Source: an uncultured Gammaproteobacteria bacterium (lineage in GTDB: Bacteria > Patescibacteriota > Microgenomatia > PFEM01 > DATLAM01). Taken from it: DNA of 64,000 bases. The stretch is taken from assembly GCA_964566925.1 (NCBI GenBank), contig CAZMIZ010000001.1, forward strand, positions 135,248 to 199,247, given 5' to 3'. The position numbers and the translations under genes are program-made. The notes beneath the pieces are model-generated. The model was given only the letters and a program-made list of their open reading frames with translations, had not been told where the DNA came from and searched no databases. This document shows, in pieces, positions 13,596-64,000 of the stretch; position 1 is the stretch's first letter; the number at the start of each line of letters is the position of its first letter.

Positions 13596-13599
13596 GGAG

Positions 13600-42664: not shown

Positions 42665-42673
42665 TGTGGATAA
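42665..42673 (-). promoter_or_regulatory. perfect DnaA box (TTATCCACA) in the dnaA promoter region
   Basis: tgtggataa read directly. It sits within the spacer of a TTGACT-N17-TTAAAT promoter-like pair at 42651-42679. Confidence 0.6.
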
Positions 42674-42737
42674 CTTTGTTAAATTGTCATTGGAGTCTTC
42701 TGCCCTCAACCTGCGTTTAGTTTATTATTCAACAATC

Positions 42738-50216: not shown

Positions 50217-50251
50217 CGTTATGAATAACTATAGCAGAAATTAATAGAGGC

Positions 50252-52177
50252 TTAAACTCCCCTAGCTTCGGCTGTTTCTGGGAATTTTTCTGGCTCAGAA
50301 GGAGTTTTCGCTTCTGAAGTCTGGACTGCTCCTGGCGCTTCTTTTGCGGCCTCAATTGCTTTTCTTTTGATTTCTCTCATCGCCAACAGCTCTTCTGGCT
50401 TAGAAGTAATCAATTGGTGTTCGTTGGGGGAGGCCACGACTCGGATCGCCACGTGGTTGGGTCCAGCAAAAAAGAGACCTTCGCCGATGTCCGCTGCTAA
50501 CAGAAGGTGTTTTTCTCCTTCAGAGAGATAGAAAACCTCGGCTACTTGGTCAATGGCGGCGGCCGACATTTTCATCAAGGTTTGGATTGAGGAGTTTTGG
50601 ACAATCGCCTTGCCGTACTCAGAAGCAAGAAAATCCTCAGCGTCCTGAGTGATGGTAGTTAAACCAAGATAATATTTCCTTGCCCTTTTAGCAATTGAAT
50701 AAAGGAAGTTAGCCGAATCCGGATACTTCATTAGATACCAAGCCTCGTCAACCACCAAAATCCGTTTCTTCATTTCTTTTTTGATTTTCGTCCAGATATA
50801 GTCGAGGATAATAAACATGGCAATTGGCCGTAAAGTATCTTCCAAGTCTTTAAGAGAAAAGACAGTAAAGGGGCTTTTAATATCTAGATTGGAGTGTTGA
50901 TCAAAAATGCCGGCGAAACTGCCTTTAACGAACTTTTCAATCCGATCAGCCAGGGAGATCGCTTCTGGTTCTTCCATCCCGCGCAGAGCCTTGTAGAGAT
51001 CCTCCATTAATGGCGGCTCATTTTTCTGGGTAGCTGGGTCCGGGGTGATCCCTTTCATTTTGTAAGTTAAAACTAGAGCTCGATCTAGAGTAGCCTCTTC
51101 GCTAGGCGAAAGCTGCCCCATAATTACTTTAAAAAGTGAATGAAGAGAAAGAATTTTCAGACCGAGTTCGTTTTCGCCTTCTTCATAAACAGCGGAAAGA
51201 TCAAAAGGGTTGATTTTGGCTTGGCTGCCAAAACCAAAACTAATAAATTCCCCACCCACCGCTTCAGCTAAGGGCTGATATTCGGCTTCAGGATCAATAA
51301 TGAGAATTTCACTATCAAACATCAGGGAGCGGAGGGCTTCTAGTTTAACCAGGTAAGATTTACCGGAGCCAGATTTGCCAAAAACAACCGCGTTGGCGTT
51401 TTCCATGGTGAAGCGATCAAAGATAATCAGCGAATCATTGTGCTCGTTAATGCCGTACATGATTCCCTCATTGGCGGTAAGCTCGCTTGAGGTAAAAGGA
51501 AAAGTGGTGGCCAAAGAGGTTGTGTCCATGTTCCGGGTGATCATCAGCCGATCATAACAAGTAGGCAGGGTAGCTTTGAAGCCCTCTTCCATCTGAAGAG
51601 TGGCTTTTTTAGAAATAATTAAGAGCGAACCTAAGGTTGATTCGACTTGTTTAGAAACCTGGTCGAGTTCTTCTAAGGTTCCAGCCGGGATGGTGATGTA
51701 AAGGCCGAATTGGAAAAAACGCTCCGCCCCTTTAACTAGCTGTTCTTGCAGTTTCCGGGCGTCTTCTAGTTTTGCTTTAGTGGCAGGATCAACAATTCTT
51801 CCTCTTTGGGTATCTGATTGGATTTCGGCTTCCATTTCACCAATTTTACGCCGCAGCTCATCTAAAATTGATCTCCCTTCAACCGGATAGACATACATCG
51901 AAATATCCAATGAGTGATCAAAATTGATTAAAGGGGCGAGCCAATTGGCGGAAACAAAGCGGGGATAGCCAGCCACGAAAAGGGTCCGGAAAAAAGTATT
52001 GCCGATTTTAACGTGATTAAAGTCCACCTCTAAAGCTGGCGGAGCAATCAAGTCCTGAATTTGGACCATTCCTTTGCCCAGGCTTTCCGTGGGAGGCAGC
52101 TTTCTCTCTCCATTAGGAGGGGTTCCGGCTGACTGGCCTTTTGGAGCGGTTTTGGTTTTTAGGAAAGGTAAGCGCAT
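50252..52177 (-). CDS. VirB4/TrbE-family type IV secretion ATPase (ATPase core)
   Basis: Walker A VVFGKSGSGKSY, Walker B RILVVDEAWYL, a TTITQDAEDF motif, and the N-terminal CagE/TrbE/VirB domain start FFRTLFVAGYP. Confidence 0.8.
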   Translation of the reverse strand: MRLPFLKTKTAPKGQSAGTPPNGERKLPPTESLGKGMVQIQDLIAPPALEVDFNHVKIGNTFFRTLFVAGYPRFVSANWLAPLINFDHSLDISMYVYPVEGRSILDELRRKIGEMEAEIQSDTQRGRIVDPATKAKLEDARKLQEQLVKGAERFFQFGLYITIPAGTLEELDQVSKQVESTLGSLLIISKKATLQMEEGFKATLPTCYDRLMITRNMDTTSLATTFPFTSSELTANEGIMYGINEHNDSLIIFDRFTMENANAVVFGKSGSGKSYLVKLEALRSLMFDSEILIIDPEAEYQPLAEAVGGEFISFGFGSQAKINPFDLSAVYEEGENELGLKILSLHSLFKVIMGQLSPSEEATLDRALVLTYKMKGITPDPATQKNEPPLMEDLYKALRGMEEPEAISLADRIEKFVKGSFAGIFDQHSNLDIKSPFTVFSLKDLEDTLRPIAMFIILDYIWTKIKKEMKKRILVVDEAWYLMKYPDSANFLYSIAKRARKYYLGLTTITQDAEDFLASEYGKAIVQNSSIQTLMKMSAAAIDQVAEVFYLSEGEKHLLLAADIGEGLFFAGPNHVAIRVVASPNEHQLITSKPEELLAMREIKRKAIEAAKEAPGAVQTSEAKTPSEPEKFPETAEARGV

Positions 52178-52180
52178 TGT

Positions 52181-53062
52181 TTATCTTTTTTTAACTGTTT
52201 TAATTAAATTGTCAATCTGCCGCTGAAGGGCCTCGCCTTCCAGAGGGGGTTGACCACTGGCCGGCGGCTCCCTTTTTTCTGGTTCAGAAGAAGGGTTGGG
52301 TGAAGATGGGGTTGGTTGAGGCGAAGGAGCTGGGGGTGTTGGGCTTAATGGTTGAGGCGGAGGTGATGATTCAGGCGAGGGAGCTTCTAAAGCTGGCTCC
52401 ACTAAAGGGGTTTTGTATTCAGAGGCAGCGGTAATTTTTTGTCCTTGAGTTTCCGGGTTATAAATAGAGAAGAAGAGCTCAATTAATTCCTGGCTGCTTA
52501 GCTGATGAGTTCTTAGACCTAATCGGCTGAGGAGGCGGATCAGGTGATCTCTTTTGGGGTAAAGATTGGTTTTGGCTCGCTCAAGGATATAGTCTTTAGG
52601 AAAAGGAAGGCCCTTTTTCTTTTTAAAAATGGAAGTGGCTGCTTTAGTGGCGCCTAGCTCCAGAGCAGTCATCGGAATGACAATATAGAACTTTTTATCC
52701 AAAACTTCATTTTGCTTCACGGTTTCTGCAACGAAGGCTCGATATTTTTGGATCTGTTCAGCCAGGAGGGGTTCCTTTTTTTTCTTTTCTTGTTCCTCCA
52801 AGAGCTTCAGATAGTTGGAAATATCTTTTTTAATGGAACGAATCACAATTTGGATCGGAAAGGTAAGTGAATTAAGAAGGCCAGCGTAAGCATAGATGGT
52901 GGCGTCTTGCTCTTTTTCCGAAAGCAAACCAAAATTGATGGCAGTCGTCGCCAAGACCAGACAGACACCACCGTCTTTAAGGACCACCAGGTCATCTTGA
53001 ATATCCTCAATATCCAAATGCTCTTGACTAGTCGCTCGAATAGGAATTTTGGTAGGATCCAT
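52181..53062 (-). CDS. VirB4 N-terminal-domain-like protein with Pro-rich tail (in frame with the downstream ATPase ORF across one TAA)
   Basis: DLVVLKDGGVCLVLATTAINFGLLSEKEQDATIYAYAGLLNSL resembles the N-terminal region of Gram-positive VirB4 homologues. Its stop TAA (52181-52183) and the ATG of the next ORF (52175-52177) are separated by one codon in the same frame. Confidence 0.4.
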   Translation of the reverse strand: MDPTKIPIRATSQEHLDIEDIQDDLVVLKDGGVCLVLATTAINFGLLSEKEQDATIYAYAGLLNSLTFPIQIVIRSIKKDISNYLKLLEEQEKKKKEPLLAEQIQKYRAFVAETVKQNEVLDKKFYIVIPMTALELGATKAATSIFKKKKGLPFPKDYILERAKTNLYPKRDHLIRLLSRLGLRTHQLSSQELIELFFSIYNPETQGQKITAASEYKTPLVEPALEAPSPESSPPPQPLSPTPPAPSPQPTPSSPNPSSEPEKREPPASGQPPLEGEALQRQIDNLIKTVKKR

Positions 53063-53063
53063 A

Positions 53064-53112
53064 ATTCTAGAATTTCTAATATCTAATTTCTAATCAATTT
53101 CTAATGATCAAT
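53064..53112. repeat. array of TTCTAAT-type short repeats, inverted relative to the ATTAG repeats at 53521-53552, bracketing the four-helix-bundle gene
   Basis: gaatttctaat atctaatttctaat caatttctaat on the left, and aattaggttaattagagattaggtc on the right (reverse complement of ctaat x3). Confidence 0.6.
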
Positions 53113-53144
53113 TCCTAAATTAAGCTAATTAATGTAATGTTTTA

Positions 53145-53519
53145 TTACTTTTTCTTTAGTTTATTTATTATCGAATTAAAAATTAAGTTTAGCTCTTTAG
53201 CTTCTTGCCATAATGTTTTTGCCTCTTCCTTTAGTTCTGGGACAGCAATAGGAATCATTCTTAACCAATGTTTTGACTCTCTTGATTCCTTTTTACATAT
53301 ACCGATTTTATGGCCAAAGTCTCGTTTAGACTCAGCGTCGTCGGCCTCACAGTAGTTAGCTCCAACACTGGTTCCTGCTTTAACAAGTTGAGTTATTAAC
53401 GGGGTCGTTATCGGCATCTTGGGTATTCTATTGGCAAACTTAATAATATTTTCGCCAAACCTGGCGGTTCTCTCTTCTAAATCGAATTTTTTACTTTTAG
53501 TTATTTTGTTATTAGTCAT
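53145..53519 (-). CDS. four-helix-bundle protein (23S rRNA intervening-sequence protein / Avd-like family)
   Basis: ARFGENIIKF ... QLVKAGTSVGANYCEADDAESKRDFGHKIGICKKESRESKHWLRM matches the TIGR02436/PF05635 family. Confidence 0.75.
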   Translation of the reverse strand: MTNNKITKSKKFDLEERTARFGENIIKFANRIPKMPITTPLITQLVKAGTSVGANYCEADDAESKRDFGHKIGICKKESRESKHWLRMIPIAVPELKEEAKTLWQEAKELNLIFNSIINKLKKK

Positions 53520-53552
53520 TTTTTAGAGCAATTAGGTTAATTAGAGATTAGG

Positions 53553-54581
53553 TCAATTCTGCTTGGCTTGAATTTCTATTGGCTGAGTAATTTCCCCTTT
53601 AAGAATAATTTGGATTAGGTCAAAGTGGAGGCCTTCCTTTTCCACCTCGATTTCGTAAGTCCCGTTTTTTAAAGGACTGGCGATTCTGAATTGGCCGAGC
53701 TTGTTGGTTTTTAAGGCTCGGACAGGCGAACCTTTCTCGTCTCTGATTTCAATGATGGCATTTTCAACCAGCTTGCCCTCTTGATCAATGACCATGCCCA
53801 CTAAAATATTGGGACGGTCTGGTGGAGCGGGAATGGGGAGATCAGGGGAAAGTCTGGGTTTAACCGTAGGCGATTTTACCCGGGCTGGTTTTTTGATTGG
53901 GGCAGCTTTTTTAACTACTTTCGGCTCTGGGGCCGGTTGGGGCATGGTTTTTTCGGCTGCCTTGGTGGGCGCTTTTTGGGGTTCAGCTAAGGGAAGGTGA
54001 AGTTTCCGGATTTTAATTCCCGGTTTTACCTCTTCAGCCAGGGCTGGCTTGACATTCGGGGTTAAGGTGGATGGGAGAGAAACCAGCTGGAAGAGATTGC
54101 CGATTTGGTTAAGGGCGCCCTCTTCCTGTTGATCTAGCGGACTGGATGGGGTAGTGGTGGGCAGTGTTTTGAGGTATTCCTCGAGCCGGGCTTGATCAAC
54201 CGGTGTGGCGGGGGCTTGTTTCTTTACTTTCGGCCGAGGGACAACCTTAAAGAATTCCGGCTTGACCGGTGTTTTCTTCCAAATAAACTGGGTGGGTGAA
54301 TAGATGGCTTTTGAAAAGGCGATAAACCAGCGGTCAAGTGGCCGTTCCTCAATCGGCATAAAAGCAAAAGCAACTCCGCTGAGACCAGAAAAGATGACTA
54401 GCGGCCATTTAAAATAAGAAGCCAAGGGGGCAGCGTAAAAAAGAAGAGCGACGAGACAGCCACCTGCCAGAAACCCAAACTGTTTAAGGGTCATGTCGCC
54501 GACCAGCCGAAACTGGTAGGCGGTGATATGTTGCGGGACAGGATGTTGTTCCATAAGCGCTTCGCGCAGGACAGAGCGCAC
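53553..54581 (-). CDS. PrgI/VirB3-like membrane protein with Pro/Lys-rich linker and C-terminal CarbopepD_reg-like beta domain
   Basis: N-terminal ITAYQFRLVGDMTLKQFGFLAGG plus two TM helices resembles the PrgI family. The C-terminal ILVGMVIDQEGKLVENAIIEIRDEKGSPV ... NGTYEIEVEKEG is transthyretin/CarbopepD_reg-like. GTG start. Confidence 0.4.
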   Translation of the reverse strand: MRSVLREALMEQHPVPQHITAYQFRLVGDMTLKQFGFLAGGCLVALLFYAAPLASYFKWPLVIFSGLSGVAFAFMPIEERPLDRWFIAFSKAIYSPTQFIWKKTPVKPEFFKVVPRPKVKKQAPATPVDQARLEEYLKTLPTTTPSSPLDQQEEGALNQIGNLFQLVSLPSTLTPNVKPALAEEVKPGIKIRKLHLPLAEPQKAPTKAAEKTMPQPAPEPKVVKKAAPIKKPARVKSPTVKPRLSPDLPIPAPPDRPNILVGMVIDQEGKLVENAIIEIRDEKGSPVRALKTNKLGQFRIASPLKNGTYEIEVEKEGLHFDLIQIILKGEITQPIEIQAKQN

Positions 54582-54626: not shown

Positions 54627-54998
54627 CTAAGATTTTTCTAAGTTCTTCATTAATGTTGTTAAAATTTTCATTAATTCGGTATTCCTGGTAAGAAAACCCT
54701 TAATCATTTGATTATCAAACTTTTTCGTTTCAAACATAACATCCAGCCAATAATCTGCCTCAAAGCTGGATCCTCGGGAAATTCCAAGAAACTGACGATA
54801 GCTTTTAGAATAGTAGCGACCATAACCTTCGGCAATATTCGCACCAATAGAAGACAGCGCCCTTATGAGTTGACCAGTAAGAATTTCAGCAACTCTATCT
54901 TTTCGTTGGATAGAGAAATATTTAATGGCATCAACTGTTAACAGTTTTGCCTTTTGGTAAGCAATTAAGTTTTTATAGGAAGCGGGCAGTTTTCGCAT
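54627..54998 (-). CDS. four-helix-bundle protein (23S rRNA intervening-sequence protein / Avd-like family), second copy
   Basis: YQKAKLLTVDAIKYF ... GQLIRALSSIGANIAEGYGRYYSKSYRQFLGISRGSSFEADYWL matches the canonical family signature. Confidence 0.75.
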   Translation of the reverse strand: MRKLPASYKNLIAYQKAKLLTVDAIKYFSIQRKDRVAEILTGQLIRALSSIGANIAEGYGRYYSKSYRQFLGISRGSSFEADYWLDVMFETKKFDNQMIKGFLTRNTELMKILTTLMKNLEKS

Positions 54999-55146: not shown

Positions 55147-58100
55147 TTGTTAGGAGAAGAAATGCCTGAGGAAAGTCAAGAAAAAGGAATGATGCCAGGA
55201 GAAAAAAGTTTTGGCCGTCCTCATCACCCAGAGGCGAAGCCCACCATGGGTCTCCCAGGCCAGCCTGAAAAAGGGGAAAGATACTTTGCTACCTTGAACG
55301 AATTTAGAGAGGCTCTTGAAGGAATTCCCGATGGGTTTAAAAAGAAAGCGAATCGTTTAAGAAGGAATCTTCGCTCAGCCATAAAAAAGAGTGAAGAAGA
55401 AAAGGTCGGGGATATTTTAAAAGAAGTAGACGGATTAGTAGAGAAAGAGCCAAAGCTGGTCCAGTGGTCAGAATTGATGGAACAAGAGGCCACCGGGGAA
55501 GTCCAACCAGGGGAATCAAGCGAAAAGTCGGTCGGAGAGATAGTCGAAGAGCCGCCCCAAAAAGCGAAACCAGAAGACATTCGGATGGTTCCGGACGCAA
55601 TCTCTGACGAAAGAATGGAAGACGATGAAGAGGTCCTAGTTGATCCGCGAACAGAAAAAATGAAGTTCGTTGAGAGATATCCTCTGTGGGTGGAAGAAAC
55701 AACCAGAAGCGTTGCCGAAATTCGGGGTCAATATTTCAGATTTTTAGCCGGCATTGGTGCCCGCCAGCCAGTTCCAGGTCAAGGAATTAATGATTCTGAA
55801 TGGGAAGAGATTGCCAGATATACTGCTGAAATAGATTCAATTATTCGGAAAATTGGGAGAAAGGAGAGAGGAGAAAGAACGGCTGAAGAAAAAGGAGAGC
55901 TTAAGAGGGCACAAAAGCTTAAACGGATGGCTGGCGCTTATTACCATGAGCTTGAGTTTTATCACCGATTTTGGTACGGAGAGGAATCAGGAATCGGTAA
56001 GGAAGTGAAAAGATCTAAAGAGGGATCAAGACTTCTTTTGATTGACCAAATGGCGGTTCTTTTTACTATTCCTGAAGTGGCGAAAGCCTTTAAAGAAGAA
56101 AAGGGCTATAAAAGTGATGCTGAGTTAGTTGATGAGGTTAATGATCCCTATGGCTGGCGAAGACTGGGACATCACCTTCGCCGTTATTCGTGCACCCCGA
56201 TGTATCGGGACGCTTATGAGGCGGGGGCGAAGACAGCTAAACCTGGTGAACCGATTAAACCGGGGTTTGGTCTTAGCTACGAGTATAGTCTTTTTGGCAT
56301 TTACTTTACTGGGAGATGGGCGGAAAAAAACAATGCCAAATACGCCAAAGTTCTTCGAGTAGAAGATGCTGATGGCAATCTGATTATTGATCTGGGGAAA
56401 TTAGGAGCCACCTATGATATGTGGACTACCCCTGCCAGACTAGAGTTGTATGTTCTTTTTTGGGAGCATTTAGGAAAAAGAAACCAAATTAGACTCTCTG
56501 CTGGGAGGGGAAGAGAATGGCTAAACAAGCACGAGGAGCAGCTTTATTCCAAAAAAGCAAGCGAAGGGCTGCGAGATCTTCTTTGGAATTATCGAGATAA
56601 AGAAAAAGTCCTTAGAGACCGGATTGGCGAAATTGATAAGAAAAAGGAATCAGAGGGGTTATCCGCTGAAGACGAAGAAGAGCTTCAACAGCTCCAATCT
56701 AGCCTTCAAGACCTTCTAGCGGAGCAGGAAAGGCTAGTTGGATTCTCAAATGAGGAGATTAAAGAGTTTCGGGAATTACTAATGAAAAAAGCAATTAATA
56801 GAGAACAACTAAGAGAAGATGAAGAGGAGAGCCTGGCAGAGCTTAAAAAGACAATCGGAAACGTGATGCTTAGAAATATGATTAATCGAGACTTAGGTTT
56901 TGACCCCTCTGAAAGAGACTTTAATCTGATTGCTATTTTTAGCGATCCCTTGAGTCGGCACGAAGAACTTACGCCCAATGATATTTTAACCAACCTCTTA
57001 GTGGATGTCCGGAGGATGGAACAAACCCAGGACGCTTTAACAGCCGGAAAAGAATGCTTTATCGCTAAACCTTCATTTGAAATGATTCTTGACATGGAGT
57101 CGGAGGTATATGCTCATCTTGGTTATTTTCCTTGGTTAAGGGAGAGACAGATATTTGCCCTGAGAGAGCTTGTTTCTAGATTATATTTAGCCGGGGTTAT
57201 TAACACGATCAGGTTAAGCGGTACTCACCTTTTTGAAGAAGAGAGTAAAAAAATTTATGATAGTTTGAAGGCAAAGGCTAATGTAGGTCTTCACGCCGAA
57301 GGTTTGAAAGCCACTTATGGAATAGATTTTACTGATCCCGACCTCAAAGACGGCGCATCGCTTGCTGAAGTAATCAGATGTCTTAAGCTAGTTCATAGAG
57401 GGAGGTTAAATGCAATTTATGAACAAAGAAGAGAGCAATGGGTGATCAATGTTTTAGAGAAAGGGGTGGCAGCAGAAGCCCACGAGAAGGTGCGATTTCT
57501 TAGCCGATTCAGATTTTCTGATTATGTCTCTTTTGAAGCGCGGATTATTGAAGAACCAGTGCTTAACGCTATGGGGTGGACCAGGGAAGAAAGTCTAGAG
57601 AAAGAAAAAGAACGGTTTCGAACTCGCGACCTTTGGTTAGCCAAAAAAGGCCAACTTCCTGGCGATGACGGCGTCTTTATATTTAGCCGTAATCAGGCGT
57701 TAAAACCGGGTTGGGAGAGGTTCGCGAGAGAGAAAGGGGAAAGTGATCGAAGGAAAGAAGACGGCAGGTGGATTTATGGTTATCGCTACGAAACCGATAA
57801 ATTTGAAAAGGTAGGCTATGTAACCGACGAAAACCACGTTTATCGAACTATCGCCTGGGAGGATCCAATCCAGAAAAGCTTATTTGAAGTGGAACAGCTG
57901 ATTTATTCCAAAAATTACGAGATTTTGAGTAAATATATTGATGAACACTCCCCGGAGATAATTGATGATCCCAACGAATGGTTAACCCCTCCTCAAAGGC
58001 AGAATCTGATTAAAGATCACCTCCGCCGGATCAGTATTGATCCTGACCGAGCCGAAGTTTTAATGAAGAAATATTCTTGCACCAATGCCGATTGCTGGAT

Positions 58101-58455
58101 TTGGACGGCCAAAAGGTTGACCTTTGGACGTCTGGCCCCCGAACTTATAGCTAAAATCCCGATTGTTGGTCCTCTTGCCAGAAATGTTAATATTGCCGGC
58201 ATTGGACTTTCTGGCTGGATTGGTGCGGTAGCCCAATTTGGCCTTCCCAGGGTCGCCACCTATTTGACCGGTAATCCTATCGCGATCGGCACCGGGGTTT
58301 ATTTTCTCCAGTTAGGGCTTATCTCTTTTGTTACTAGTCCTCTGGTGCGAAGAATGGCGTGGCTTAGCACCATTCCAGGGACAAATTTTAGGTTAAAAGG
58401 CCTCCTCCCAATTTATTGGGAGCCTAAAGGAAAGGTAAAAGAATATGAGGGTTAA
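55147..58455 (+). CDS. large hypothetical protein with C-terminal TM hairpin (divergent from the T4SS-like genes)
   Basis: 1102 aa, Glu/Lys-rich, with no recognisable catalytic motifs. Two C-terminal hydrophobic helices. Confidence 0.5.
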   Translation: MLGEEMPEESQEKGMMPGEKSFGRPHHPEAKPTMGLPGQPEKGERYFATLNEFREALEGIPDGFKKKANRLRRNLRSAIKKSEEEKVGDILKEVDGLVEKEPKLVQWSELMEQEATGEVQPGESSEKSVGEIVEEPPQKAKPEDIRMVPDAISDERMEDDEEVLVDPRTEKMKFVERYPLWVEETTRSVAEIRGQYFRFLAGIGARQPVPGQGINDSEWEEIARYTAEIDSIIRKIGRKERGERTAEEKGELKRAQKLKRMAGAYYHELEFYHRFWYGEESGIGKEVKRSKEGSRLLLIDQMAVLFTIPEVAKAFKEEKGYKSDAELVDEVNDPYGWRRLGHHLRRYSCTPMYRDAYEAGAKTAKPGEPIKPGFGLSYEYSLFGIYFTGRWAEKNNAKYAKVLRVEDADGNLIIDLGKLGATYDMWTTPARLELYVLFWEHLGKRNQIRLSAGRGREWLNKHEEQLYSKKASEGLRDLLWNYRDKEKVLRDRIGEIDKKKESEGLSAEDEEELQQLQSSLQDLLAEQERLVGFSNEEIKEFRELLMKKAINREQLREDEEESLAELKKTIGNVMLRNMINRDLGFDPSERDFNLIAIFSDPLSRHEELTPNDILTNLLVDVRRMEQTQDALTAGKECFIAKPSFEMILDMESEVYAHLGYFPWLRERQIFALRELVSRLYLAGVINTIRLSGTHLFEEESKKIYDSLKAKANVGLHAEGLKATYGIDFTDPDLKDGASLAEVIRCLKLVHRGRLNAIYEQRREQWVINVLEKGVAAEAHEKVRFLSRFRFSDYVSFEARIIEEPVLNAMGWTREESLEKEKERFRTRDLWLAKKGQLPGDDGVFIFSRNQALKPGWERFAREKGESDRRKEDGRWIYGYRYETDKFEKVGYVTDENHVYRTIAWEDPIQKSLFEVEQLIYSKNYEILSKYIDEHSPEIIDDPNEWLTPPQRQNLIKDHLRRISIDPDRAEVLMKKYSCTNADCWIWTAKRLTFGRLAPELIAKIPIVGPLARNVNIAGIGLSGWIGAVAQFGLPRVATYLTGNPIAIGTGVYFLQLGLISFVTSPLVRRMAWLSTIPGTNFRLKGLLPIYWEPKGKVKEYEG

Positions 58456-58475
58456 AATAGAAAGAGGAGGTTTCA

Positions 58476-59561
58476 ATGGCTGAAGCAATTACCGAAACAA
58501 TGGGGCCAGGTCTGGCTTTTAGAAGAGAGACTCCGGAGAGTCAGGCCCTTAAAGGTTTAGAAGCGAAGATTGGGAGAATAAAAGAAAGAGTTTCTTTTTC
58601 AGACCTGCAACAAAGACTAAAAAGTTTTATTAAAAAAGATATCAGCAATGATCCGGAGATAGAAGGCATAAGTCAACAATTATGGGAAGTAGTTGATGCC
58701 AGGCTTAGGAAAGAGGAAGATCATTTAAAGACAAATGATCTTCCCAGGGTGTTTCGAGAAATGGTAGGAAGTCTTTTGCCCGGAGCCTCTCTCGAAGGTA
58801 AAGAGCAACTCCAAGAATTATTGGTTAAACTTTCTGAGTTTGAAGCAAGGGGAGTTATGGGAGAATTAAGCCCCGATCCTCAAAAAGCTTTTGAACAACT
58901 TTCAGGTTTAATTTTAGGAAAAGAAGATGGAGAGCAATTCGTTAACACCATGACAGAGGTGGCCGCTGCAACAGAAAAGCCCTATCCAAAACCGAAACCA
59001 CCCAGTCTTCCTACCGGAGAAAAAGGTTTTTTTGGGAAAGGTAAGGGCCCGGGTCTTAGATATTATAGATTGATGGTTATAGGGATTGCTCTGATGACCT
59101 GTTGCGCCGCTCAAGGAGCTTGTCCTGGTCTAAAGATGTATCTTGATGTTCGAGGAAGAACGGAGGCAGATTCGGGTACCGAGGCCCAAGAACAAGCCGG
59201 GATTAACCAGGCGGCCCTAGATGTAGTTGATGGAAGATATCCTTATGAATGGCTAGAAAGAAGTGAAACCTTAAGGGGAGAAGAAGGAGAAGAGTTTGCG
59301 AGAAGTGTTCTCGAAAGAACTCGAGACTTGGTCATGGCGGACCCAAATCGGTTAGACCAAATGGATGCCGCCTGGATTGGCCGCCTCATCCATGAGTACG
59401 GGGAAGAGGAAGGCTATAATCTAATTTTTAATCTTGATCAGGTTGATGATTTAGAAAAACGGGATCAAGTAAGCCAATATTTATCTAGTGGGCGGTACGA
59501 AAGTTCTTCTCCTCCAGGCGGTAGCAGAGAAGCAAGCCAGGGAAGCAATGGCAGCGGTTGA
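58476..59561 (+). CDS. hypothetical protein with central TM helix
   Basis: 361-aa ORF, 20 nt downstream of the previous gene. Contains CCAAQGAC next to its TM helix. Confidence 0.45.
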   Translation: MAEAITETMGPGLAFRRETPESQALKGLEAKIGRIKERVSFSDLQQRLKSFIKKDISNDPEIEGISQQLWEVVDARLRKEEDHLKTNDLPRVFREMVGSLLPGASLEGKEQLQELLVKLSEFEARGVMGELSPDPQKAFEQLSGLILGKEDGEQFVNTMTEVAAATEKPYPKPKPPSLPTGEKGFFGKGKGPGLRYYRLMVIGIALMTCCAAQGACPGLKMYLDVRGRTEADSGTEAQEQAGINQAALDVVDGRYPYEWLERSETLRGEEGEEFARSVLERTRDLVMADPNRLDQMDAAWIGRLIHEYGEEEGYNLIFNLDQVDDLEKRDQVSQYLSSGRYESSSPPGGSREASQGSNGSG

Positions 59562-59642: not shown

Positions 59643-61034
59643 TTAAATTCCCGCCGCTAAACCGCCAATAAGTGGTAATCTCCCAATCACTCCGCGCAGA
59701 GTTTGACCAGCCGCGGCAAACATTGGTGGACCAGGCCTTTTTTCAAAAGCCTGATCAATCATGTCGGGGACAGAGGGAGAGATTAAAAGAATTCCTAACC
59801 CAATAATATTAGGAATAATGCTTGGGTCTGTAAAGATATCAGCAATCATTCTCGGAGCCTGGAGGTCGCTCATGGTAACCTGAACATTCCAAGAAGGCGC
59901 CTGACTTATAATTGCCCCTATGGCTAAGACTCCATAAACAGCTGGAAAGGCCAAAACCGATTTGATTAAAGTTTTAAGCCACATCCAGGTCACATTGCCT
60001 CTTCCCGGAATGGCTGAAAAAAGGAGCAAAATGGGCCCAAAAATCGTGGCTAAAAGAAAAGTCACGTAGCGGCTCAAAAGGGCGAAGAAAAGTTTAAACA
60101 TGGTAAAAACCACGACCAAGGCAATAATAAAAGTAAAAATAGAACCACCGCCACCCGGTATGATGGAAAGAATGCCCTCAACCAGCCTGACTAGCGCTAA
60201 AAGTCCTGTTGGCGGGATTGAGATTTGTTGGGGATTAAAACTTAAACCGCCAAAGGCATCATTAAGGAGCTCAAAAAGATTATAATTCCCTGGCGGGTAA
60301 GCAAGAGCCGCACTTTTAATTAAAGTGTTAATCAAGGCCAGCCCAAACTCCATCAGATCGAACATTAGTCCAGCCAAAGCGTAACTGAAGGTAATCAAAA
60401 GAAGAGCAATTACTAGTTGAGGTAGGGCACTTTGAATTGAAGCTACCGTTTGAGGATCAATTTTGGCCCGAAACATAATCATAAAACCGACGGCAACGAA
60501 GATGATAACCAAAAAGAGATAAGCTAGGCTTCGGAAAAGTTTCCAAAGATCAAGGATGGGTTCAAGAGCATGCCAGCCTGTCCCCTGAGCGTAGGCTGGC
60601 TTGACTAAACCTAGATTTTGACCCAGATCAGCTAAATAATCAACCGATGAAGCCGGAGGAGAAGAATAAAGTCCATTAACCAAGGCGATGGTTCCATCTA
60701 AAGCACTAGTGCCCGAAGCTTGTCCTTCAAGAAGCGGAACACCTGTCAGGGCATGAGTGCCGGCATTTCCCGCCTTGTCTACCAAAAAACGAGTAAATTG
60801 ACCGAGATTGATGTCTTCTGCTTCGTACTCTTCTTTTATTTCTTGGAGAAAAGTTGGTAATTGGCCTTCAGAGGGAACATCAACCGGACTTGGAAGATAG
60901 GCGGCCTGAGCGATTTTAACCAAAGGAATAATTAAAAGGAAAAGGAGAAGAGAAACAAAAACTATTTTTCGGTTGAAATTTTTGGGCAGCGACATAACTG
61001 CTTTTAAGTTAACATCATTGACTGTTTTTTGCAA
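59643..61034 (-). CDS. polytopic membrane protein, VirB6/TrbL-like candidate
   Basis: 463 aa with a signal-like N-terminus and about 8 TM helices. The size, topology and T4SS gene neighbourhood suggest a VirB6/TrbL analogue. The assignment rests on topology and context and carries no sequence-family evidence. Confidence 0.4.
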   Translation of the reverse strand: MQKTVNDVNLKAVMSLPKNFNRKIVFVSLLLFLLIIPLVKIAQAAYLPSPVDVPSEGQLPTFLQEIKEEYEAEDINLGQFTRFLVDKAGNAGTHALTGVPLLEGQASGTSALDGTIALVNGLYSSPPASSVDYLADLGQNLGLVKPAYAQGTGWHALEPILDLWKLFRSLAYLFLVIIFVAVGFMIMFRAKIDPQTVASIQSALPQLVIALLLITFSYALAGLMFDLMEFGLALINTLIKSAALAYPPGNYNLFELLNDAFGGLSFNPQQISIPPTGLLALVRLVEGILSIIPGGGGSIFTFIIALVVVFTMFKLFFALLSRYVTFLLATIFGPILLLFSAIPGRGNVTWMWLKTLIKSVLAFPAVYGVLAIGAIISQAPSWNVQVTMSDLQAPRMIADIFTDPSIIPNIIGLGILLISPSVPDMIDQAFEKRPGPPMFAAAGQTLRGVIGRLPLIGGLAAGI

Positions 61035-61043
61035 GTGGTTTAT

Positions 61044-63851
61044 TTATTCCTCCTCTGGATTTAAGGCTTCCAAAACCCATTCTTTTGCCTTTTGAATGCC
61101 GCCTAAATGAGGGAAATAGAATTTCCAGGGTTCGCCTGGGGTGATCGAACCCCCAGTGTAACTGTAGTTAATGTAGCTATGGGCATCAAGGTCTTCAAAA
61201 GTTGACTCGGTTTCCGGCCGGAAAATGTTAAAAAGCCCCTGGAAAGAATCGGTAGTCTGTTCCCAGATTTGGTCAAGATAAGGATGAAGAAGGTCGACCT
61301 TAACATCCCGGTGAACATGGCGGGTTTCGACATTGCGACATTCAGGGTTAAGGAGGTCTCTTTCGCCAGTGGCCGGATCAGTAAACCAAACACAAGGGCC
61401 GGTGTAGTTTGGGTTTTCGAACTGATCAACCGCCTTCAGGTCAATAAAAATCGGATCACAGCAGATGGTGTCATTCGGATTATTATCGCTGACACTTTCA
61501 TATTCACAGGCTGGATAAGGTATTGGTTCGGCCAGACCGCATTCACGTGGCTCAGGCATTGGCCCAAGACTGCCACAGCAGGCGGTTCCATTTTCATCTA
61601 AGGTCATAGAGCAACCACCCGAGACAACATAATGAAGATTAATATTCTCTGTAGTTACAGAGACATTGACGTTAGCACCTGGATCGGTGGGACAGCTAAA
61701 ATAATAGGTCATGCTTGGACCAAGAACATTCATAAACCCAACTTGCTGGCCGTTAATATAGGTGTGGAGGTGACCACAGCCGTGGGCGTCGATAACCACT
61801 GTTCCTGATCCTCCAGAACAACAGATAGCCCTAATGGCTAAGTTGCAACAACAGTCGCCATCGGGGTCGCAAGCATCCCATTCTCCCTGGGCCAAAAGGG
61901 TTTTTTCGCCTAGAACCTGAGGATTGCTCGAAGCTAGAAGAATTTTTTCTGATGCTTCCTCTTCCTCCTCCTCCACCCAAGGAAAGAGCAGTTTTTGAAG
62001 CTCTTGGGTGACTTCAAAAAGTCGGGCGAGATGGGGCACTTTTTCTTCCTGGACAGGCGGAATGACGTCAGCAATATCCTTTCTTTTGACATTAACCGAG
62101 GCAATGACTTGACCAGGGGAATCTTCCCGGGTAAACATCGGGACGGCCGCCCAAAGTTTTCCAGAAGGAGTTCTTTTCCAGCTCTCATAAGCTTTTTTCC
62201 AGTCTTCGTAGTCGTCTGGCTTGGCTTTAACCGGTAGTTCAGGCGGAGGCTGGATTTCACTTAATTGCATTGAATAACCACCATGTTCGATGAGGTAGTC
62301 ATGGATAATCTCGGTGCCTTCTTTAATGTTGCCAGAGAGACTCTTTTTAGCCCGGTCAATCATTTCGTTTTTAAGCTCATCTTGGAGTTCTTTAGGCGCG
62401 AGTTTTCTGAAAACGCCTCCTTCCATCACTGAGCGCTCAACTTCTTCTTGACAAGTTCCTTTTTCTTCACAACTCTCAAGATCGATATCTTGACCATAGT
62501 AGAAGGCAGTACCCTCAAAATAGTCAGCTAAATATTTTTGAACATCCTCTTCGCCCTTTTTACCCACAAAAGGAACGGTGACATCATTGGCATCAATGGT
62601 AATAATGCCGCCCCAGTCTTTTTCAACCCAATGTTCACCAGTTGGTTCACAAACAAAGTCCGAGTCCTCCCATTTCCAGCTGACGGTATCATGGACCGCA
62701 AAAGTGGTGGCGCAGGCATAGGTTAAAGGCGGCTCTAAAATACAAGCATCACAAGGGAGTGGACGGGAATCAGAGTCGCCTCCTTCAGAGGGGGTACAGG
62801 TCATCCCAAGAGCCCCTCCATCATACATGTAAATGGTTCCCCCGCCAAAAGTACTTAGTTCTAAGATGATGATTTTCCCGTCGGCGGTGATGATGACCAA
62901 AAGGGTAATGTCTGGGTGGCCATCACCATCCAAGTCAAGGAAAAAAGAAGTGGTGATAAATTGAACGTCAGGGAAAAGGTCGTGGTTAGCCATAAACTCC
63001 TGAATAATCCCTTCCATAATTTTGACCCATTGCTTTAGATCTTCTTTATCTTGGAGTAACCCACCATGATAAAGAGGGCCCAATTCGGTGATGATGAAAT
63101 TGTTGGGAACCCCTCTTTCTACTAAAAAATCAATCAATTTTTGGTATTGTTTAGAGACCGCTTGGGCATTTTCGCCATAGATGGTTAAGGCGGCTCCATC
63201 AACCAGATCAGCGATAGTCAGATTACCGGAAACCACGGTATTCAAGATGGTATCCAAAAAAGGAAAATCTACTTGGCCTGTGTGGGTAGCCATTGGCGGA
63301 ATTAAGATATTAAAATTTCGATCTGAAATACCCGCGCCCAAAATAAAAGAGGCTAAGCTGTTAGCGAAACTCTTAGCATCAGCCGAACCACCCCACTCAT
63401 AAGAAAGATCCGGCTCATTACCAAAATAAACATTGACTGGTTCGGAAAACTGGATTTGGCTGAGGGCCCAGGCTAGGGTTTCGCCTGCCACTTGAGCTTT
63501 TTGGGGGGAAATTCTCGTCCAACCTTGGCTGGGGCTAAAGTAATCAGAGGAAACCCTGATAATGGGGATGAGATTGTTTTCTTTCATTGCCTGGAGGTTT
63601 TTGAGAAGACTTTCTCTATTCTGAGGGCTAAGATCGGCCGTGCTATAGATAATGGTAACCGGGATTGAATAACCAGCACAACCGTATTGGTCATATTGGT
63701 TTCTAATTTGATCGTAATTTGAGGGATCAATATTGCCGGCAATCTTGGGGCCGACAACACCGCAAGTTTGGGCCAAAACTGGAGAGGGGATAAGCTGCCA
63801 ACCGAAGAAAAAAACGAAAACGAAAAAGATAGTTAGGCAGGGTTTTTTCAT
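61044..63851 (-). CDS. secreted large Cys-rich protein with N-terminal glycoside-hydrolase-like (NEPD motif) domain
   Basis: Signal peptide MKKPCLTIFFVFVFFFGW...A, VYFGNEPDL (a clan GH-A-like acid/base motif), and C-terminal Cys-rich modules (CDPDGDCCCNLAIRAICCSGG). Confidence 0.5.
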   Translation of the reverse strand: MKKPCLTIFFVFVFFFGWQLIPSPVLAQTCGVVGPKIAGNIDPSNYDQIRNQYDQYGCAGYSIPVTIIYSTADLSPQNRESLLKNLQAMKENNLIPIIRVSSDYFSPSQGWTRISPQKAQVAGETLAWALSQIQFSEPVNVYFGNEPDLSYEWGGSADAKSFANSLASFILGAGISDRNFNILIPPMATHTGQVDFPFLDTILNTVVSGNLTIADLVDGAALTIYGENAQAVSKQYQKLIDFLVERGVPNNFIITELGPLYHGGLLQDKEDLKQWVKIMEGIIQEFMANHDLFPDVQFITTSFFLDLDGDGHPDITLLVIITADGKIIILELSTFGGGTIYMYDGGALGMTCTPSEGGDSDSRPLPCDACILEPPLTYACATTFAVHDTVSWKWEDSDFVCEPTGEHWVEKDWGGIITIDANDVTVPFVGKKGEEDVQKYLADYFEGTAFYYGQDIDLESCEEKGTCQEEVERSVMEGGVFRKLAPKELQDELKNEMIDRAKKSLSGNIKEGTEIIHDYLIEHGGYSMQLSEIQPPPELPVKAKPDDYEDWKKAYESWKRTPSGKLWAAVPMFTREDSPGQVIASVNVKRKDIADVIPPVQEEKVPHLARLFEVTQELQKLLFPWVEEEEEEASEKILLASSNPQVLGEKTLLAQGEWDACDPDGDCCCNLAIRAICCSGGSGTVVIDAHGCGHLHTYINGQQVGFMNVLGPSMTYYFSCPTDPGANVNVSVTTENINLHYVVSGGCSMTLDENGTACCGSLGPMPEPRECGLAEPIPYPACEYESVSDNNPNDTICCDPIFIDLKAVDQFENPNYTGPCVWFTDPATGERDLLNPECRNVETRHVHRDVKVDLLHPYLDQIWEQTTDSFQGLFNIFRPETESTFEDLDAHSYINYSYTGGSITPGEPWKFYFPHLGGIQKAKEWVLEALNPEEE

Positions 63852-63854
63852 TTA

Positions 63855-64000
63855 TTTAGGAATTTCGAACTCCGTGACCTCAACTCCAGTAAACTCTTTA
63901 ATAAATTGAAGAATAAACCAGGCAATGATTACCAAAACTAATCCTAAAATTGCGTAGGTGATGGTGTTTTTGGCTGATTCGGTTCCTTTCGGGTCGCCGG
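63855..64000 (-). CDS. small membrane protein, C-terminal fragment (pilin/VirB2-like?) running off the window
   Basis: The minus-strand frame ends ...AKNTITYAILGLVLVIIAWFILQFIKEFTGVEVTEFEIPK*, a hydrophobic helix plus a short tail. Confidence 0.3.

Follow-up and report, generated by a model that had tools for sequence, protein, structure and literature searches.

The 935-aa secreted protein encoded towards the end of the window (the whole 64,000-nt stretch of DNA analysed), here named BIG, is an undescribed component of a known system, and with somewhat better than even confidence we regard it as a stem displayed on the pilus or cell surface and carrying an exchangeable glycosidase head. Together with the pilin gene and the gene of a polytopic membrane protein (POLY463) that flank it, it would make up the part that faces outwards in a type IV secretion system (T4SS) of a Patescibacteria (CPR) bacterium, the system being chromosomal and of monoderm type (MPF-FATA-like). 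The features of the locus and of BIG are as follows:

46533..54581, minus strand: rest of the T4SS locus (Pfam and NCBIfam matches; same order in related loci), with the next four genes
46533-50216, minus strand: M23 peptidase, 1227 aa, directly after VirB4 (Pfam/NCBIfam)
50252-52177, minus strand: VirB4 ATPase (Pfam/NCBIfam)
52181-53062, minus strand: TrsD/TraC-like protein (Pfam/NCBIfam)
53553-54581, minus strand: PrgI/VirB3-like protein with a CarboxypepD_reg domain (Pfam/NCBIfam)
55147..59561, plus strand: two convergent genes (1102 aa and 361 aa) between POLY463 and prgI
59643..61034, minus strand: POLY463, 463-aa polytopic membrane protein (450 aa from ATG), always after BIG
61044..63851, minus strand: BIG, 935-aa secreted modular protein with signal peptide, GH-A-like head, two-part stem, linker and Cys-rich module
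61047..61526, minus strand: BIG stem part 2, residues 776-935, conserved C-terminal domain (AF2 pLDDT >90)
61527..61871, minus strand: BIG variable Cys-rich module, residues 661-775, predicted β-sandwich
61872..61958, minus strand: BIG linker, residues 632-660, predicted disordered, with the conserved motif (I/L)LASS..VLGEKTLLAQ
61956..62804, minus strand: BIG stem part 1, residues 350-632, where conservation across the family is highest (AF2 pLDDT mostly >90)
62817..63770, minus strand: BIG head, residues 28-345, predicted (β/α)8 barrel of clan GH-A type (AF2, Foldseek, motifs)
63771..63851, minus strand: BIG Sec-type signal peptide, residues 1-27, ending ...SPVLA before QT (read from the sequence by eye)
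63852..64000, minus strand: VirB2-like T4SS pilin, 3' end (48 codons), sixth and last of a tandem array running past the window end

The ORF listing of the window bears out the three-gene set of the preliminary description, with the pilin fragment, BIG and POLY463 at the coordinates above, all on the minus strand and convergent with two plus-strand genes (55147-58455 and 58476-59561), from which they are separated by an 81-nt gap. Because the 935-aa and 463-aa proteins have many homologues, the three genes are judged to be real and not chance ORFs. For BIG, one search returned 17 homologues, and 436 cluster representatives were found at E ≤ 1e-3 (252 at E ≤ 1e-10); for POLY463 there were more than 208, including hypothetical proteins under the names Ca. 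Shapirobacteria, Ca. Chisholmbacteria and Patescibacteria group. Those homologues that are named point towards Shapirobacteria and allied groups. The plus-strand products, of which the 1102-aa protein has C-terminal hydrophobic segments and the 361-aa protein a single one, had no match in Pfam or NCBIfam. Homologues of their genes occupy the same position in three related loci (L001, L005 and L006), and different opposite-strand genes are found in this slot in the other loci.

Membership of the three genes in a type IV secretion locus, suspected from the outset, is supported by the genes for PrgI, TrsD, VirB4 and the M23 hydrolase, which lie on the same strand 5-13 kb away. The locus is adjoined by dnaA and dnaN, an adjacency already published for T4SS loci of Patescibacteria (PMC12102498). 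Synteny was assessed in 22 related loci whose BIG homologues share only 23-43% identity with the query stem. A pilin gene was directly upstream of BIG in all 21 loci holding upstream sequence, POLY463 came next after BIG in all 19 holding downstream sequence, and PrgI, TrsD and VirB4 followed 2-4 kb past POLY463 in all loci reaching that far. The order pilin array, BIG, polytopic protein, PrgI, TrsD, VirB4 was thus found in every sufficiently long locus fetched. Two relatives (P0014 and P0017) with a query-type head and a divergent C-terminal part occupy the same slot.

The pilin fragment (63852-63998, minus strand) comprises 48 residues and a stop, its TAA abutting the ATG of BIG, and matched the NCBIfam pilin-like conjugal transfer protein NF045849 with an E-value of 4e-5. 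Sequence past position 64000 was obtained from a public Logan contig (L001), which encodes an identical 935-aa protein and extends beyond the window end. On this contig the complete gene (2317-2694) encodes 125 aa and matches PF18895 (T4SS_pilin) with 44 bits, the cut-off being 26.6, as well as PF04956 (TrbC) at E 5e-4, so the VirB2-like identity proposed for the fragment was retained on completion. It is one of six tandem VirB2-like paralogues (PF18895) in an array that ends at the BIG start codon. The six pilins, BIG and POLY463 appear to be co-transcribed, and each begins with a Sec-type signal or anchor.

The naming of POLY463 as VirB6-like fared less well, being left with topology and position as its basis. 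The protein has a signal/anchor segment and about six hydrophobic helices as read by eye. Its match to Pfam TrbL fell short of the cut-off (12.1 against 25.9 bits; E 0.16), and hhalign gave probabilities below 1% against TrwI and PrgH. Among 51 members of the family, TrbL was matched by three, none better than 1.1e-3, and TrbC/VirB2 by 11. POLY463 is therefore regarded as a candidate VirB6-type platform.

BIG as a whole had no match in Pfam or NCBIfam. By eye, its signal peptide reads MKKPCLTIFFVFVFFFGWQLIPSPVLA followed by QT, and a hydrophobic N-terminus is kept across the family alignment; no lipobox, LPXTG motif, C-terminal anchor or transmembrane segment was seen in its sequence. Of its 27 cysteines, 17 lie within residues 661-838. 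Alignments of stem part 1 revealed the motifs DSRPxPCDxC, SCATxFxV, PFVGKKGxE, KYLADYFEGT, GVxRKLxP, LWxxVPMFSREDTPG and VPHxARLYE, and those of part 2 the motifs CGLxxPxPxxxC, ITDxNPNDxLCC, HPYLxxIW, GxFNIFRP and FYFPxLGGxQxAKEW. A 586-residue AF2 model of the stem was obtained with a pLDDT of 86 and a pTM of 0.79, the latter suggesting that part 2 packs against part 1. Neither part matched Pfam, part 1 had no sequence match in the PDB, and Foldseek searches of the PDB and of viral structures gave nothing below E 0.03 for the stem. The linker has a pLDDT below 50 (model residues 283-311), and its LAQ is kept in 80% or more of 73 sequences. The Cys-rich module forms β-strands at model residues 321-395, and the sole partial Foldseek matches of the whole model, to Ig/FN3/CARDB/CBM-like domains over some 75-110 aligned columns, probably belong to this module.

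It is this C-terminal stem that defines the family, and the earlier emphasis on the enzyme as the essence of BIG has to give way, as the head is exchangeable. Three relatives (P0003, P0004 and P0005) have stems 70-81% identical to that of the query and heads that are undetectable by BLAST, and the middle module shares 50-53% identity with those of P0157 and P0158, as against only 41-42% for the stems. From such comparisons, head and middle modules are seen to be swapped between close relatives. A head is lacking altogether in 17 of 119 full-start relatives, and others have a CarboxypepD_reg-type β-sandwich in place of the barrel, so that glycan cleavage is not central to what the family does.

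Fusions of a pilin hairpin into BIG are seen in up to five relatives, in four cases at the linker. In P0205, P0219, P0227 and P0249 a two-helix pilin-like hairpin lies exactly in the linker (HMM positions ~594-607), and in P0193 it is found at the C-terminus; P0205 occupies the same locus slot as BIG. Matches of these hairpins to a local pilin HMM ranged from E 1e-10 to 4e-4, values that come from a small database of hydrophobic sequences. With PF18895, P0193 scored above the cut-off (29.1 bits) and P0205 and P0249 scored 21.6 and 21.9 bits, three of the five inserts being below the Pfam threshold or undetected by Pfam. Such inserts could serve as mere membrane anchors. A hairpin brings its two flanks back to one side of the membrane, in keeping with the packing of the two stem halves. 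The query BIG has no pilin insertion, transmembrane segment or anchor and could therefore simply be released.

For the head, the AF2 model (pLDDT 79, pTM 0.84) shows β/α alternation, and a Foldseek search of the PDB returned 144 matches at E ≤ 1e-3, among which clan GH-A enzymes ranked first. The top matches were PslG of GH39 (E 3e-7, TM 0.56), iduronidase of GH39, and members of GH53, GH26, GH5 and GH1, although the best structural matches reach a TM of only ~0.56-0.61 at 10-18% identity. The NEPD motif corresponds to BIG residues 145-148, and in the model N145-E146 follows β4, Y225 follows β6 and E256 follows β7. The N-E, Y and E positions are invariant in 13 of 13 query-type heads and kept in most GH5-type heads. 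Profile matches to GH5, GH2 and PslG were weak and in register, the three motifs aligning in both the hhalign and the PDB profile alignments. The reading of the NEPD motif as GH-A-like is supported by the predicted barrel fold and the conserved glutamate pair; no curated GH family was matched by the query head in Pfam or NCBIfam. Heads of other members do exceed Pfam thresholds (GH5 in P0209 at 42 bits and in P0016 at 32 bits; PF11790 in P0155 at 25.7 bits). The query head may represent an unclassified GH family.

We propose that BIG is exported by Sec, that the two parts of its stem (350-632 and 776-935) fold as one body, and that this body would associate with the pilin pool or the pilus at the polytopic platform, thereby presenting the N-terminal head on the pilus or cell surface; the AF2 models behind this proposal are of monomers. 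The head in this bacterium would be a retaining-type clan GH-A glycosidase with E146 as acid/base and E256 as nucleophile, cutting an envelope glycan of a partner or host, or of the cell itself, and clearing the way for contact or pilus passage, in which it would resemble the tail-spike depolymerases of phages or a VirB5-like protein of the pilus tip. Head and Cys-rich module would be exchangeable cassettes fitting the machine to different surfaces. The idea that the apparatus displays the enzyme, raised in the preliminary description, is strengthened by the invariant synteny and by the pilin hairpins fused in relatives.

The same hairpins and synteny bear on whether BIG might instead be a freely secreted enzyme, i.e. 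a nutrient-scavenging glycosidase or a toxin/effector, co-transcribed with the pilins and not physically part of the apparatus. The Sec signal peptide, the lack of any anchor, LPXTG or transmembrane segment and the resemblance of GH-A heads to secreted polysaccharidases would all agree with this. However, we consider it unlikely, given that the slot is invariant across the 22 loci despite such low identity, the conserved part is the non-enzymatic stem, headless members exist, pilin hairpins are fused inside BIG in several relatives, and start and stop codons abut the flanking genes.

An equally improbable reading has BIG opening the producer's own wall as a functional VirB1/PrgK analogue, the head cutting envelope glycan for the pilus or channel to cross and the stem tethering it near the assembly site. 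Monoderm T4SSs do require wall hydrolases, some relatives have a WIEESGA motif in an additional C-terminal domain, and the C-terminal region ...IEGAG...GPMQIT... of P0205 resembles a lytic transglycosylase by eye. The locus, however, already encodes a peptidoglycan hydrolase, the M23 protein; peptidoglycan glycosidases usually belong to GH23, GH25 or GH73, not to clan GH-A barrels; and rapid head swapping, along with headless and β-sandwich-headed members, are easier to reconcile with a variable target outside the cell than with the producer's own conserved wall. Less likely still is a non-catalytic adhesin, in which the barrel binds glycan in the manner of a lectin and the stem and Cys-rich module attach, as in PrgB-type adhesins of Gram-positive conjugation. 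In T4SS loci of Patescibacteria, adhesins have gone undetected, and the variable surface modules, many probable disulfides and β-sandwich heads of the family would suit one, but the strict conservation of N-E, Y and E is the pattern predicted by purifying selection on catalysis. A displayed stem with an exchangeable glycosidase head remains the reading that we prefer.

Among known systems, the locus most resembles the MPF-FATA-like T4SS of Patescibacteria, as represented by Southlakia epibionticum (SEML1_0006-0019), the only one tested genetically. Both have VirB4, TrsD and PrgI, a large peptidase after VirB4, six divergent PF18895 pilins in tandem and a chromosomal position adjoining dnaA/dnaN, with no relaxase or coupling protein among the scanned locus genes. 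The Southlakia pilin array is divergent from a 1088-aa VirB6-like gene and has Hsp20 after it, whereas in the query BIG and the 463-aa polytopic protein come after the pilins. As no BIG-like gene follows the Southlakia pilins, the BIG module is, on this comparison, lineage-restricted. The BIG family is not described in the survey of Patescibacteria T4SSs, in which VirB6 is reported to be scarce in Microgenomatia (PMC12102498).

The order pilin, secreted protein, polytopic membrane protein is also that of the Gram-negative VirB5 (TrwJ/TraC) tip and VirB6 platform, and BIG, like VirB5, is secreted, non-anchored, encoded directly before the polytopic gene and proposed to act at the pilus. There is no sequence similarity between the two (hhalign 0.3% for the stem against TrwJ), and no solved T4SS protein was among the stem fold matches listed. 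VirB5 is a helical protein of ~220 aa, unlike BIG with its 935 aa, mixed α/β structure and enzyme head. The head shares with clan GH-A (the 4/7 superfamily, e.g., PslG of GH39, GH53 galactanase and GH5 cellulases) the predicted (β/α)8 barrel, Asn-Glu after β4, Tyr after β6 and Glu after β7, its two glutamates being 110 residues apart, but differs in the low identity and TM values given above and in matching no Pfam/NCBIfam GH model. With regard to phage tail-spike and tail-fiber depolymerases, the stem resembles no viral protein in fold (best E 0.03) and the context is that of a cellular T4SS, not a phage; the orientation is also reversed, with the variable head N-terminal and the conserved part C-terminal. 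Even so, both pair a conserved part for attachment with an enzymatic or binding module that can be exchanged and is shuffled among close relatives, and for both the role, proposed in the case of BIG, is the clearing of surface glycans.

The genes at the end of the window belong to a larger chromosomal cluster in which Pfam and NCBIfam place VirB4, PrgI (VirB3-like), TrsD and a wall hydrolase within 46533–54581, the gene set by which a Patescibacteria MPF-FATA-like system is recognised. The locus is a chromosomal, origin-proximal, monoderm-type T4SS as published for Patescibacteria (PMC12102498).

Genes of the T4SS locus and its surroundings (window positions)
63852–64000, minus strand: 3' fragment of a VirB2-like pilin gene, its TAA stop abutting the ATG of BIG
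61044–63851, minus strand: BIG, secreted modular protein, ORF of 935 aa
59643–61034, minus strand: POLY463, polytopic membrane protein, ORF of 463 aa (450 aa from the first ATG)
58476–59561, plus strand: 361-aa gene with one hydrophobic segment, no family match
55147–58455, plus strand: 1102-aa gene, Glu/Lys-rich with C-terminal hydrophobic segments, no family match
53553–54581, minus strand: PrgI/VirB3-like protein with a CarboxypepD_reg domain (Pfam/NCBIfam)
52181–53062, minus strand: TrsD/TraC-like protein (Pfam/NCBIfam)
50252–52177, minus strand: VirB4 ATPase (Pfam/NCBIfam)
46533–50216, minus strand: M23 peptidase, 1227 aa (Pfam/NCBIfam)
44315–45439: dnaN, adjoining the T4SS locus
42666–44111: dnaA, adjoining the T4SS locus

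The pilin fragment, BIG and POLY463 are tightly packed on the minus strand of 59643–64000, and this trio faces the two plus-strand genes across a convergent gap of 81 nt. A scan for terminators and promoters in this gap and at the BIG/POLY463 junction returned nothing above the shuffle background. The position of dnaA and dnaN beside the locus agrees with the published origin-proximal site of Patescibacteria T4SSs. The prgI-like gene is flanked by two minus-strand genes (53145–53519 and 54627–54998) for four-helix-bundle proteins of the "23S rRNA-intervening sequence protein" family (PF05635; E 5e-11 and 7e-23), which were not present at the matching place in the three related loci with examined gene calls (L002, L003, L005).

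Gene order was compared using local HMMs in 22 related loci, comprising the contigs L001–L006 from exact-protein look-up and 16 GTDB species representatives; in the 16 representatives, stem identity to the BIG of the window was 23–43%. The order is constant: a pilin array of one to eight genes, BIG, POLY463, a variable stretch of 2–4 kb, PrgI, TrsD, VirB4 and, where seen, M23. A pilin gene lies directly upstream of BIG in all 21 loci with upstream sequence, and POLY463 directly follows BIG in all 19 with downstream sequence. Two homologues with a head of the query's own lineage and a divergent C-terminal part (P0014, P0017) occupy the same slot. Given this invariant order, the BIG slot forms a fixed part of T4SS loci of this type. 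On L025, a Ca. Shapirobacteria MAG, an AbiEi/AbiEii toxin-antitoxin pair (12368–13794) lies between P0017 and the polytopic gene, breaking an adjacency that is elsewhere invariant. Homologues of the 1102-aa and 361-aa convergent genes were found among the related loci only in L001, L005 and L006. Many related loci also carry a second, smaller pilin pair 2–5 kb upstream of the main array (L002 5212–5872, L003 161–1158 and others), which adjoins a SpoIID-domain gene; isoprenoid and prenyltransferase genes lie between this pair and the main array.

Among the homologues of the window's proteins are some that bear the names Ca. Shapirobacteria, Ca. Chisholmbacteria or "Patescibacteria group". Several contigs bearing this Patescibacteria-type locus (among L007–L011, L014, L018, L019 and L022), one of them a complete 615-kb chromosome (OZ246397.1), are TPA MAGs titled "uncultured Gammaproteobacteria/Pseudomonadales bacterium", titles which look like placeholders or wrong taxonomy.

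The small gene cut by the window end was completed on the Logan contig L001, which encodes an identical 935-aa BIG and runs beyond position 64000. The complete gene (L001 2317–2694) encodes a 125-aa protein matching PF18895 (T4SS_pilin) with 44.0 bits against a cut-off of 26.6 and TrbC/VirB2 of Pfam with E 5e-4, and the fragment in the window by itself matches NF045849 (E 4e-5). The preliminary description of this gene as VirB2-like was thus borne out. As read from the sequence, the pilin has a signal-like N-terminal segment and two hydrophobic helices, at ~55–75 and 90–112, connected by the short polar loop SAGDPKGTESAK. On L001 it closes a tandem row of six divergent pilin paralogues. Published Patescibacteria T4SSs have such arrays, of 2–11 genes, with particular frequency in Microgenomatia and Saccharimonadia (PMC12102498); pilus formation by these systems is still termed a possibility in a FEMS review (PMC12857230).

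BIG itself has no match in Pfam or NCBIfam. A word-index search gave 17 homologues, and when 1.84 billion representatives were searched with a profile, 436 passed E ≤ 1e-3, of which 252 also passed E ≤ 1e-10 and 147 passed E ≤ 1e-30. Alignments and per-region comparison divide the protein as follows.

Regions of BIG (residues)
1–27: Sec-type signal peptide, assigned by eye
28–345: head, varying among relatives
350–632: stem part 1, conserved
632–660 (window 61872–61958): linker with the conserved motif (I/L)LASS..VLGEKTLLAQ
661–775: Cys-rich module, variable
776–935: stem part 2, conserved

Seventeen of the 27 cysteines fall within residues 661–838, and no transmembrane segment, lipobox or LPXTG motif was seen in the sequence. 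An AF2 model of residues 350–935 built from 73 sequences reached a pLDDT of 86.4 and a pTM of 0.79, with only model residues 283–311, corresponding to the linker, below pLDDT 50. Foldseek searches with this model gave no match at E < 0.04 in the PDB or E < 0.03 in BFVD; partial matches were limited to short Ig/FN3/CARDB/CBM-like β-sandwiches over ~75–110 aligned columns, which we attribute to the Cys-rich module. Profile searches of PDB sequences with the whole family and with the stem gave nothing significant. Similarity of the stem to VirB5/TraC in sequence or fold was looked for and not found, hhalign giving 0.3% probability against TrwJ, a single-sequence template with which homology may be missed, and no solved T4SS protein occurring among the 50 PDB matches listed by Foldseek, none of which had E < 0.04.

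Several smaller features of the family deserve mention. The linker is predicted to be disordered despite its strongly conserved motif, which resembles the signal-peptide end SPVLA|Q in BIG and in pilin 5 (LLASPVLAQ) and may serve for processing or docking. A near-invariant YLAD(Y/L) motif occurs in extracellular regions of both neighbours, at BIG 439–447 (KYLADYFEG) and POLY463 ~131–137 (DYLADLG), where it is among the best-conserved positions of each family, yet too short for statistical meaning. Six of the 17 first-round homologues (P0004, P0006, P0007, P0008, P0010, P0016) carry an extra C-terminal domain of ~150 aa (GWNPAFVIALWIEESGASG...FEEFMC...NFPGNLKxWY) with no match in Pfam or, profile search included, in the PDB, and C-terminal extensions of more than 60 aa occur in 40 of 124 examined members. 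A different extension, in P0205 (residues ~1150–1362, ...IEGAG...GPMQIT...), looks by eye like a lytic transglycosylase.

Comparison of BIG with its relatives region by region gave a mosaic picture.

Identity to BIG of the window by region (undetectable, by BLAST)
P0003, P0004, P0005: stem part 1, 70–72%; stem part 2, 76–81%; head, undetectable; middle, 35% or undetectable
P0157, P0158: stem part 1, 41–42%; stem part 2, 41–46%; head, undetectable; middle, 50–53%

Of 119 members whose start is intact, 17 are headless, at least 34 have an NE[PWH] motif in the N-terminal region, and some possess CarboxypepD_reg-type β-sandwiches. In view of this mosaicism and the headless members, the enzyme is regarded as a cassette that can be exchanged while the scaffold is conserved.

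An AF2 model of the head (residues 28–346, 11 aligned heads) had a pLDDT of 79 and a pTM of 0.84 and consisted of eight alternating β/α units. Foldseek returned 144 PDB matches at E ≤ 1e-3, led by PslG (GH39; E 3e-7, TM 0.56), α-L-iduronidase (GH39) and GH53 galactanase and followed by GH26 and GH5 enzymes and GH1 β-glucosidases, all of which belong to clan GH-A. The model thus predicts the head to be a (β/α)8 TIM-barrel catalytic domain of the clan GH-A type. In the model, N145-E146 (NEPD) directly follows strand β4 (model residues 112–116), the position of the acid/base, and is invariant in two alignments of query-type heads (11/11 and 13/13). Residue E256 (ITELG) stands at the end of strand β7 (model residues 225–231), the position of the nucleophile, and Y225 (LTIY) ends strand β6; both are invariant in 13 of 13 heads. 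The two Glu residues are 110 residues apart, and the PslG pair E165/E276 is 111 apart. A head profile search of PDB sequences was weakly significant (E 0.04–2), with 10 of the 12 matches being GH5, GH2, PslG or β-1,3-glucanosyltransferase proteins, all of them GH-A barrels; alignments were shown to two chains of GH5 and to two β-glucuronidases of GH2, and in these the head's NEP and E-x-G motifs fall on NEP/ETG of GH5 and TEFG of GH2.

Assignment to a curated family gave a different outcome. The head of the window's BIG matched no GH family of Pfam or NCBIfam at E ≤ 0.01–0.1, nor did the closer query-type heads that were scanned, and it remains unclassified among those families. Matches above Pfam thresholds were confined to other head lineages, namely GH5 (cut-off 23.5 bits) in P0209 (42.4), P0016 (32.1) and P0175 (24.7), and PF11790 (Glyco_hydro_cc; cut-off 21) in P0155 (25.7). 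Comparison of query-type with GH5-type heads using hhalign (12% probability, E 0.0024) served for motif register and not as proof of homology. The preliminary description had proposed a GH-A-like enzyme from the NEPD motif and made this dependent on a family match or a conserved catalytic Glu pair; the barrel model and the invariant E146 and E256 speak for it, but no curated family does, and the proposal survives because the pair is conserved.

A link between the stem and the pilins is suggested by five BIG-family representatives which contain a two-helix pilin-like hairpin.

Pilin-like inserts in BIG relatives (local pilin HMM; PF18895, cut-off 26.6 bits)
P0193: at the C-terminal end; E 1.2e-10; 29.1 bits
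P0205: in the linker; E 5.1e-9; 21.6 bits
P0249: in the linker; E 4.7e-8; 21.9 bits
P0219: in the linker; E 6.8e-6; 15.2 bits
P0227: in the linker; E 3.7e-4; no match

The linker inserts lie at family-HMM positions ~594–607, equivalent to residues 632–660 of BIG, and three of these four inserts immediately precede the xLLAQ motif. A hairpin brings the chain back to the same side of the membrane, which agrees with the modelled packing of the two stem halves together. Gene-calling artefacts were rejected as an explanation, since P0205 is one continuous called gene in the canonical slot of an NCBI MAG contig and the insertion site is shared by four distinct representatives at the 50%-identity level. 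We read these fusions as Rosetta-stone evidence that the stem may work with the pilin pool or pilus, bearing in mind that three of the five inserts are below the PF18895 threshold or undetected by Pfam, that hydrophobic sequence inflates such similarity scores and that the insert could be a mere membrane anchor.

POLY463 belongs to a family of more than 208 homologues without annotation. By eye, it has a signal or anchor segment, then ~120 aa read as extracellular, and some six hydrophobic helices (roughly 166–187, 203–226, 296–320, 322–342, 352–377 and 404–420), and it is accordingly a polytopic protein of at least five helices encoded in a T4SS locus upstream of PrgI, TrsD and VirB4. Its earlier designation as VirB6-like could not be upheld at the level of a family or profile match to VirB6, TrbL or PrgH: Pfam TrbL scored 12.1 bits (cut-off 25.9, E 0.16) and reached E ~1e-3 in three of 51 relatives, none better than 1.1e-3; hhalign gave 0.5% against R388 TrwI and 0.7% against pCF10 PrgH, single-sequence templates that make a weak test; and a profile search of the PDB gave nothing significant. 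VirB6 is described as "scarce" in Microgenomatia, for which a survey suggested extreme divergence (PMC12102498). The POLY463 family is a candidate, by position and no more, for the missing VirB6-type subunit. Its first helix pair (~137–229, window 60348–60626) resembles a VirB2-type pilin hairpin (FMIMFRAKIDPQT... versus ...QFMTAMGDPKG...), with TrbC Pfam matches in 11 of 51 relatives, local pilin HMM domain E-values of 1e-5 to 1e-3 and an hhalign E of 0.05; this weak likeness may reflect hydrophobic composition.

The reading best supported by these data, and one which we hold to be somewhat better than an even bet, is that BIG would be exported via Sec and associate through its stem with pilins or a pilus at the polytopic platform, there displaying an exchangeable head which in this genome would be a GH-A glycosidase of the retaining type with a glycan on the surface of partner or producer as its target. 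If BIG instead opened the producer's own wall, as an analogue of VirB1, it would do so in a locus that already has an M23 hydrolase and with heads that vary too fast, and this role appears unlikely. The invariant slot, the conservation of the non-enzymatic stem and the pilin fusions in relatives likewise make it improbable that BIG is a free secreted enzyme or effector, while the strict conservation of the catalytic residues leaves a non-catalytic adhesin as a very unlikely alternative.

A wider form of the pilus-associated glycosidase reading can be offered tentatively, as possible rather than probable: that the BIG stem of monoderm CPR bacteria has a new fold and represents a so far unrecognised class of proteins associated with the T4SS pilus, corresponding in function to the VirB5 tip and entering the pilus via a pilin hairpin in the fused relatives or docking to it in this genome, and that its plug-in heads, including a new clan GH-A family, are host-range-determining depolymerases for epibiotic attachment.

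The sole Patescibacterium to have been tested genetically requires its T4SS to grow as an epibiont, and the function of that system has been called completely unknown (PMC11665869; PMC10633639). The BIG module offers testable handles on this system: synteny and gene fusion link a conserved secreted protein to the pilin array, and this protein has mutable catalytic residues, a head that can be assayed on candidate host-surface glycans and exchangeable modules that might be compared with host identity. The module further supplies candidates for two parts scarce or undetected in homology surveys, the VirB6-type platform and an adhesin or tip protein, neither of the latter having been detected in Patescibacteria T4SSs (PMC12102498).

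This type of T4SS and its arrays of pilin genes are known from publications; for the BIG family and its stem, as for the swap-in GH heads and the pilin-in-BIG fusions, Pfam, NCBIfam and the literature searched yielded no earlier account. The T4SS locus of Southlakia differs from that of the window in being without a BIG slot, its six pilins being divergent from a 1088-aa VirB6-like gene and having Hsp20 after them. The place of the window's two convergent genes is occupied there by SEML1_0011 (998 aa) and SEML1_0012 (NTF2/VirB8-like), of which the 1102-aa and 361-aa genes might be the counterparts. Compared with better-known proteins, BIG is proposed to be a functional cross of a VirB5 tip protein and a phage depolymerase.
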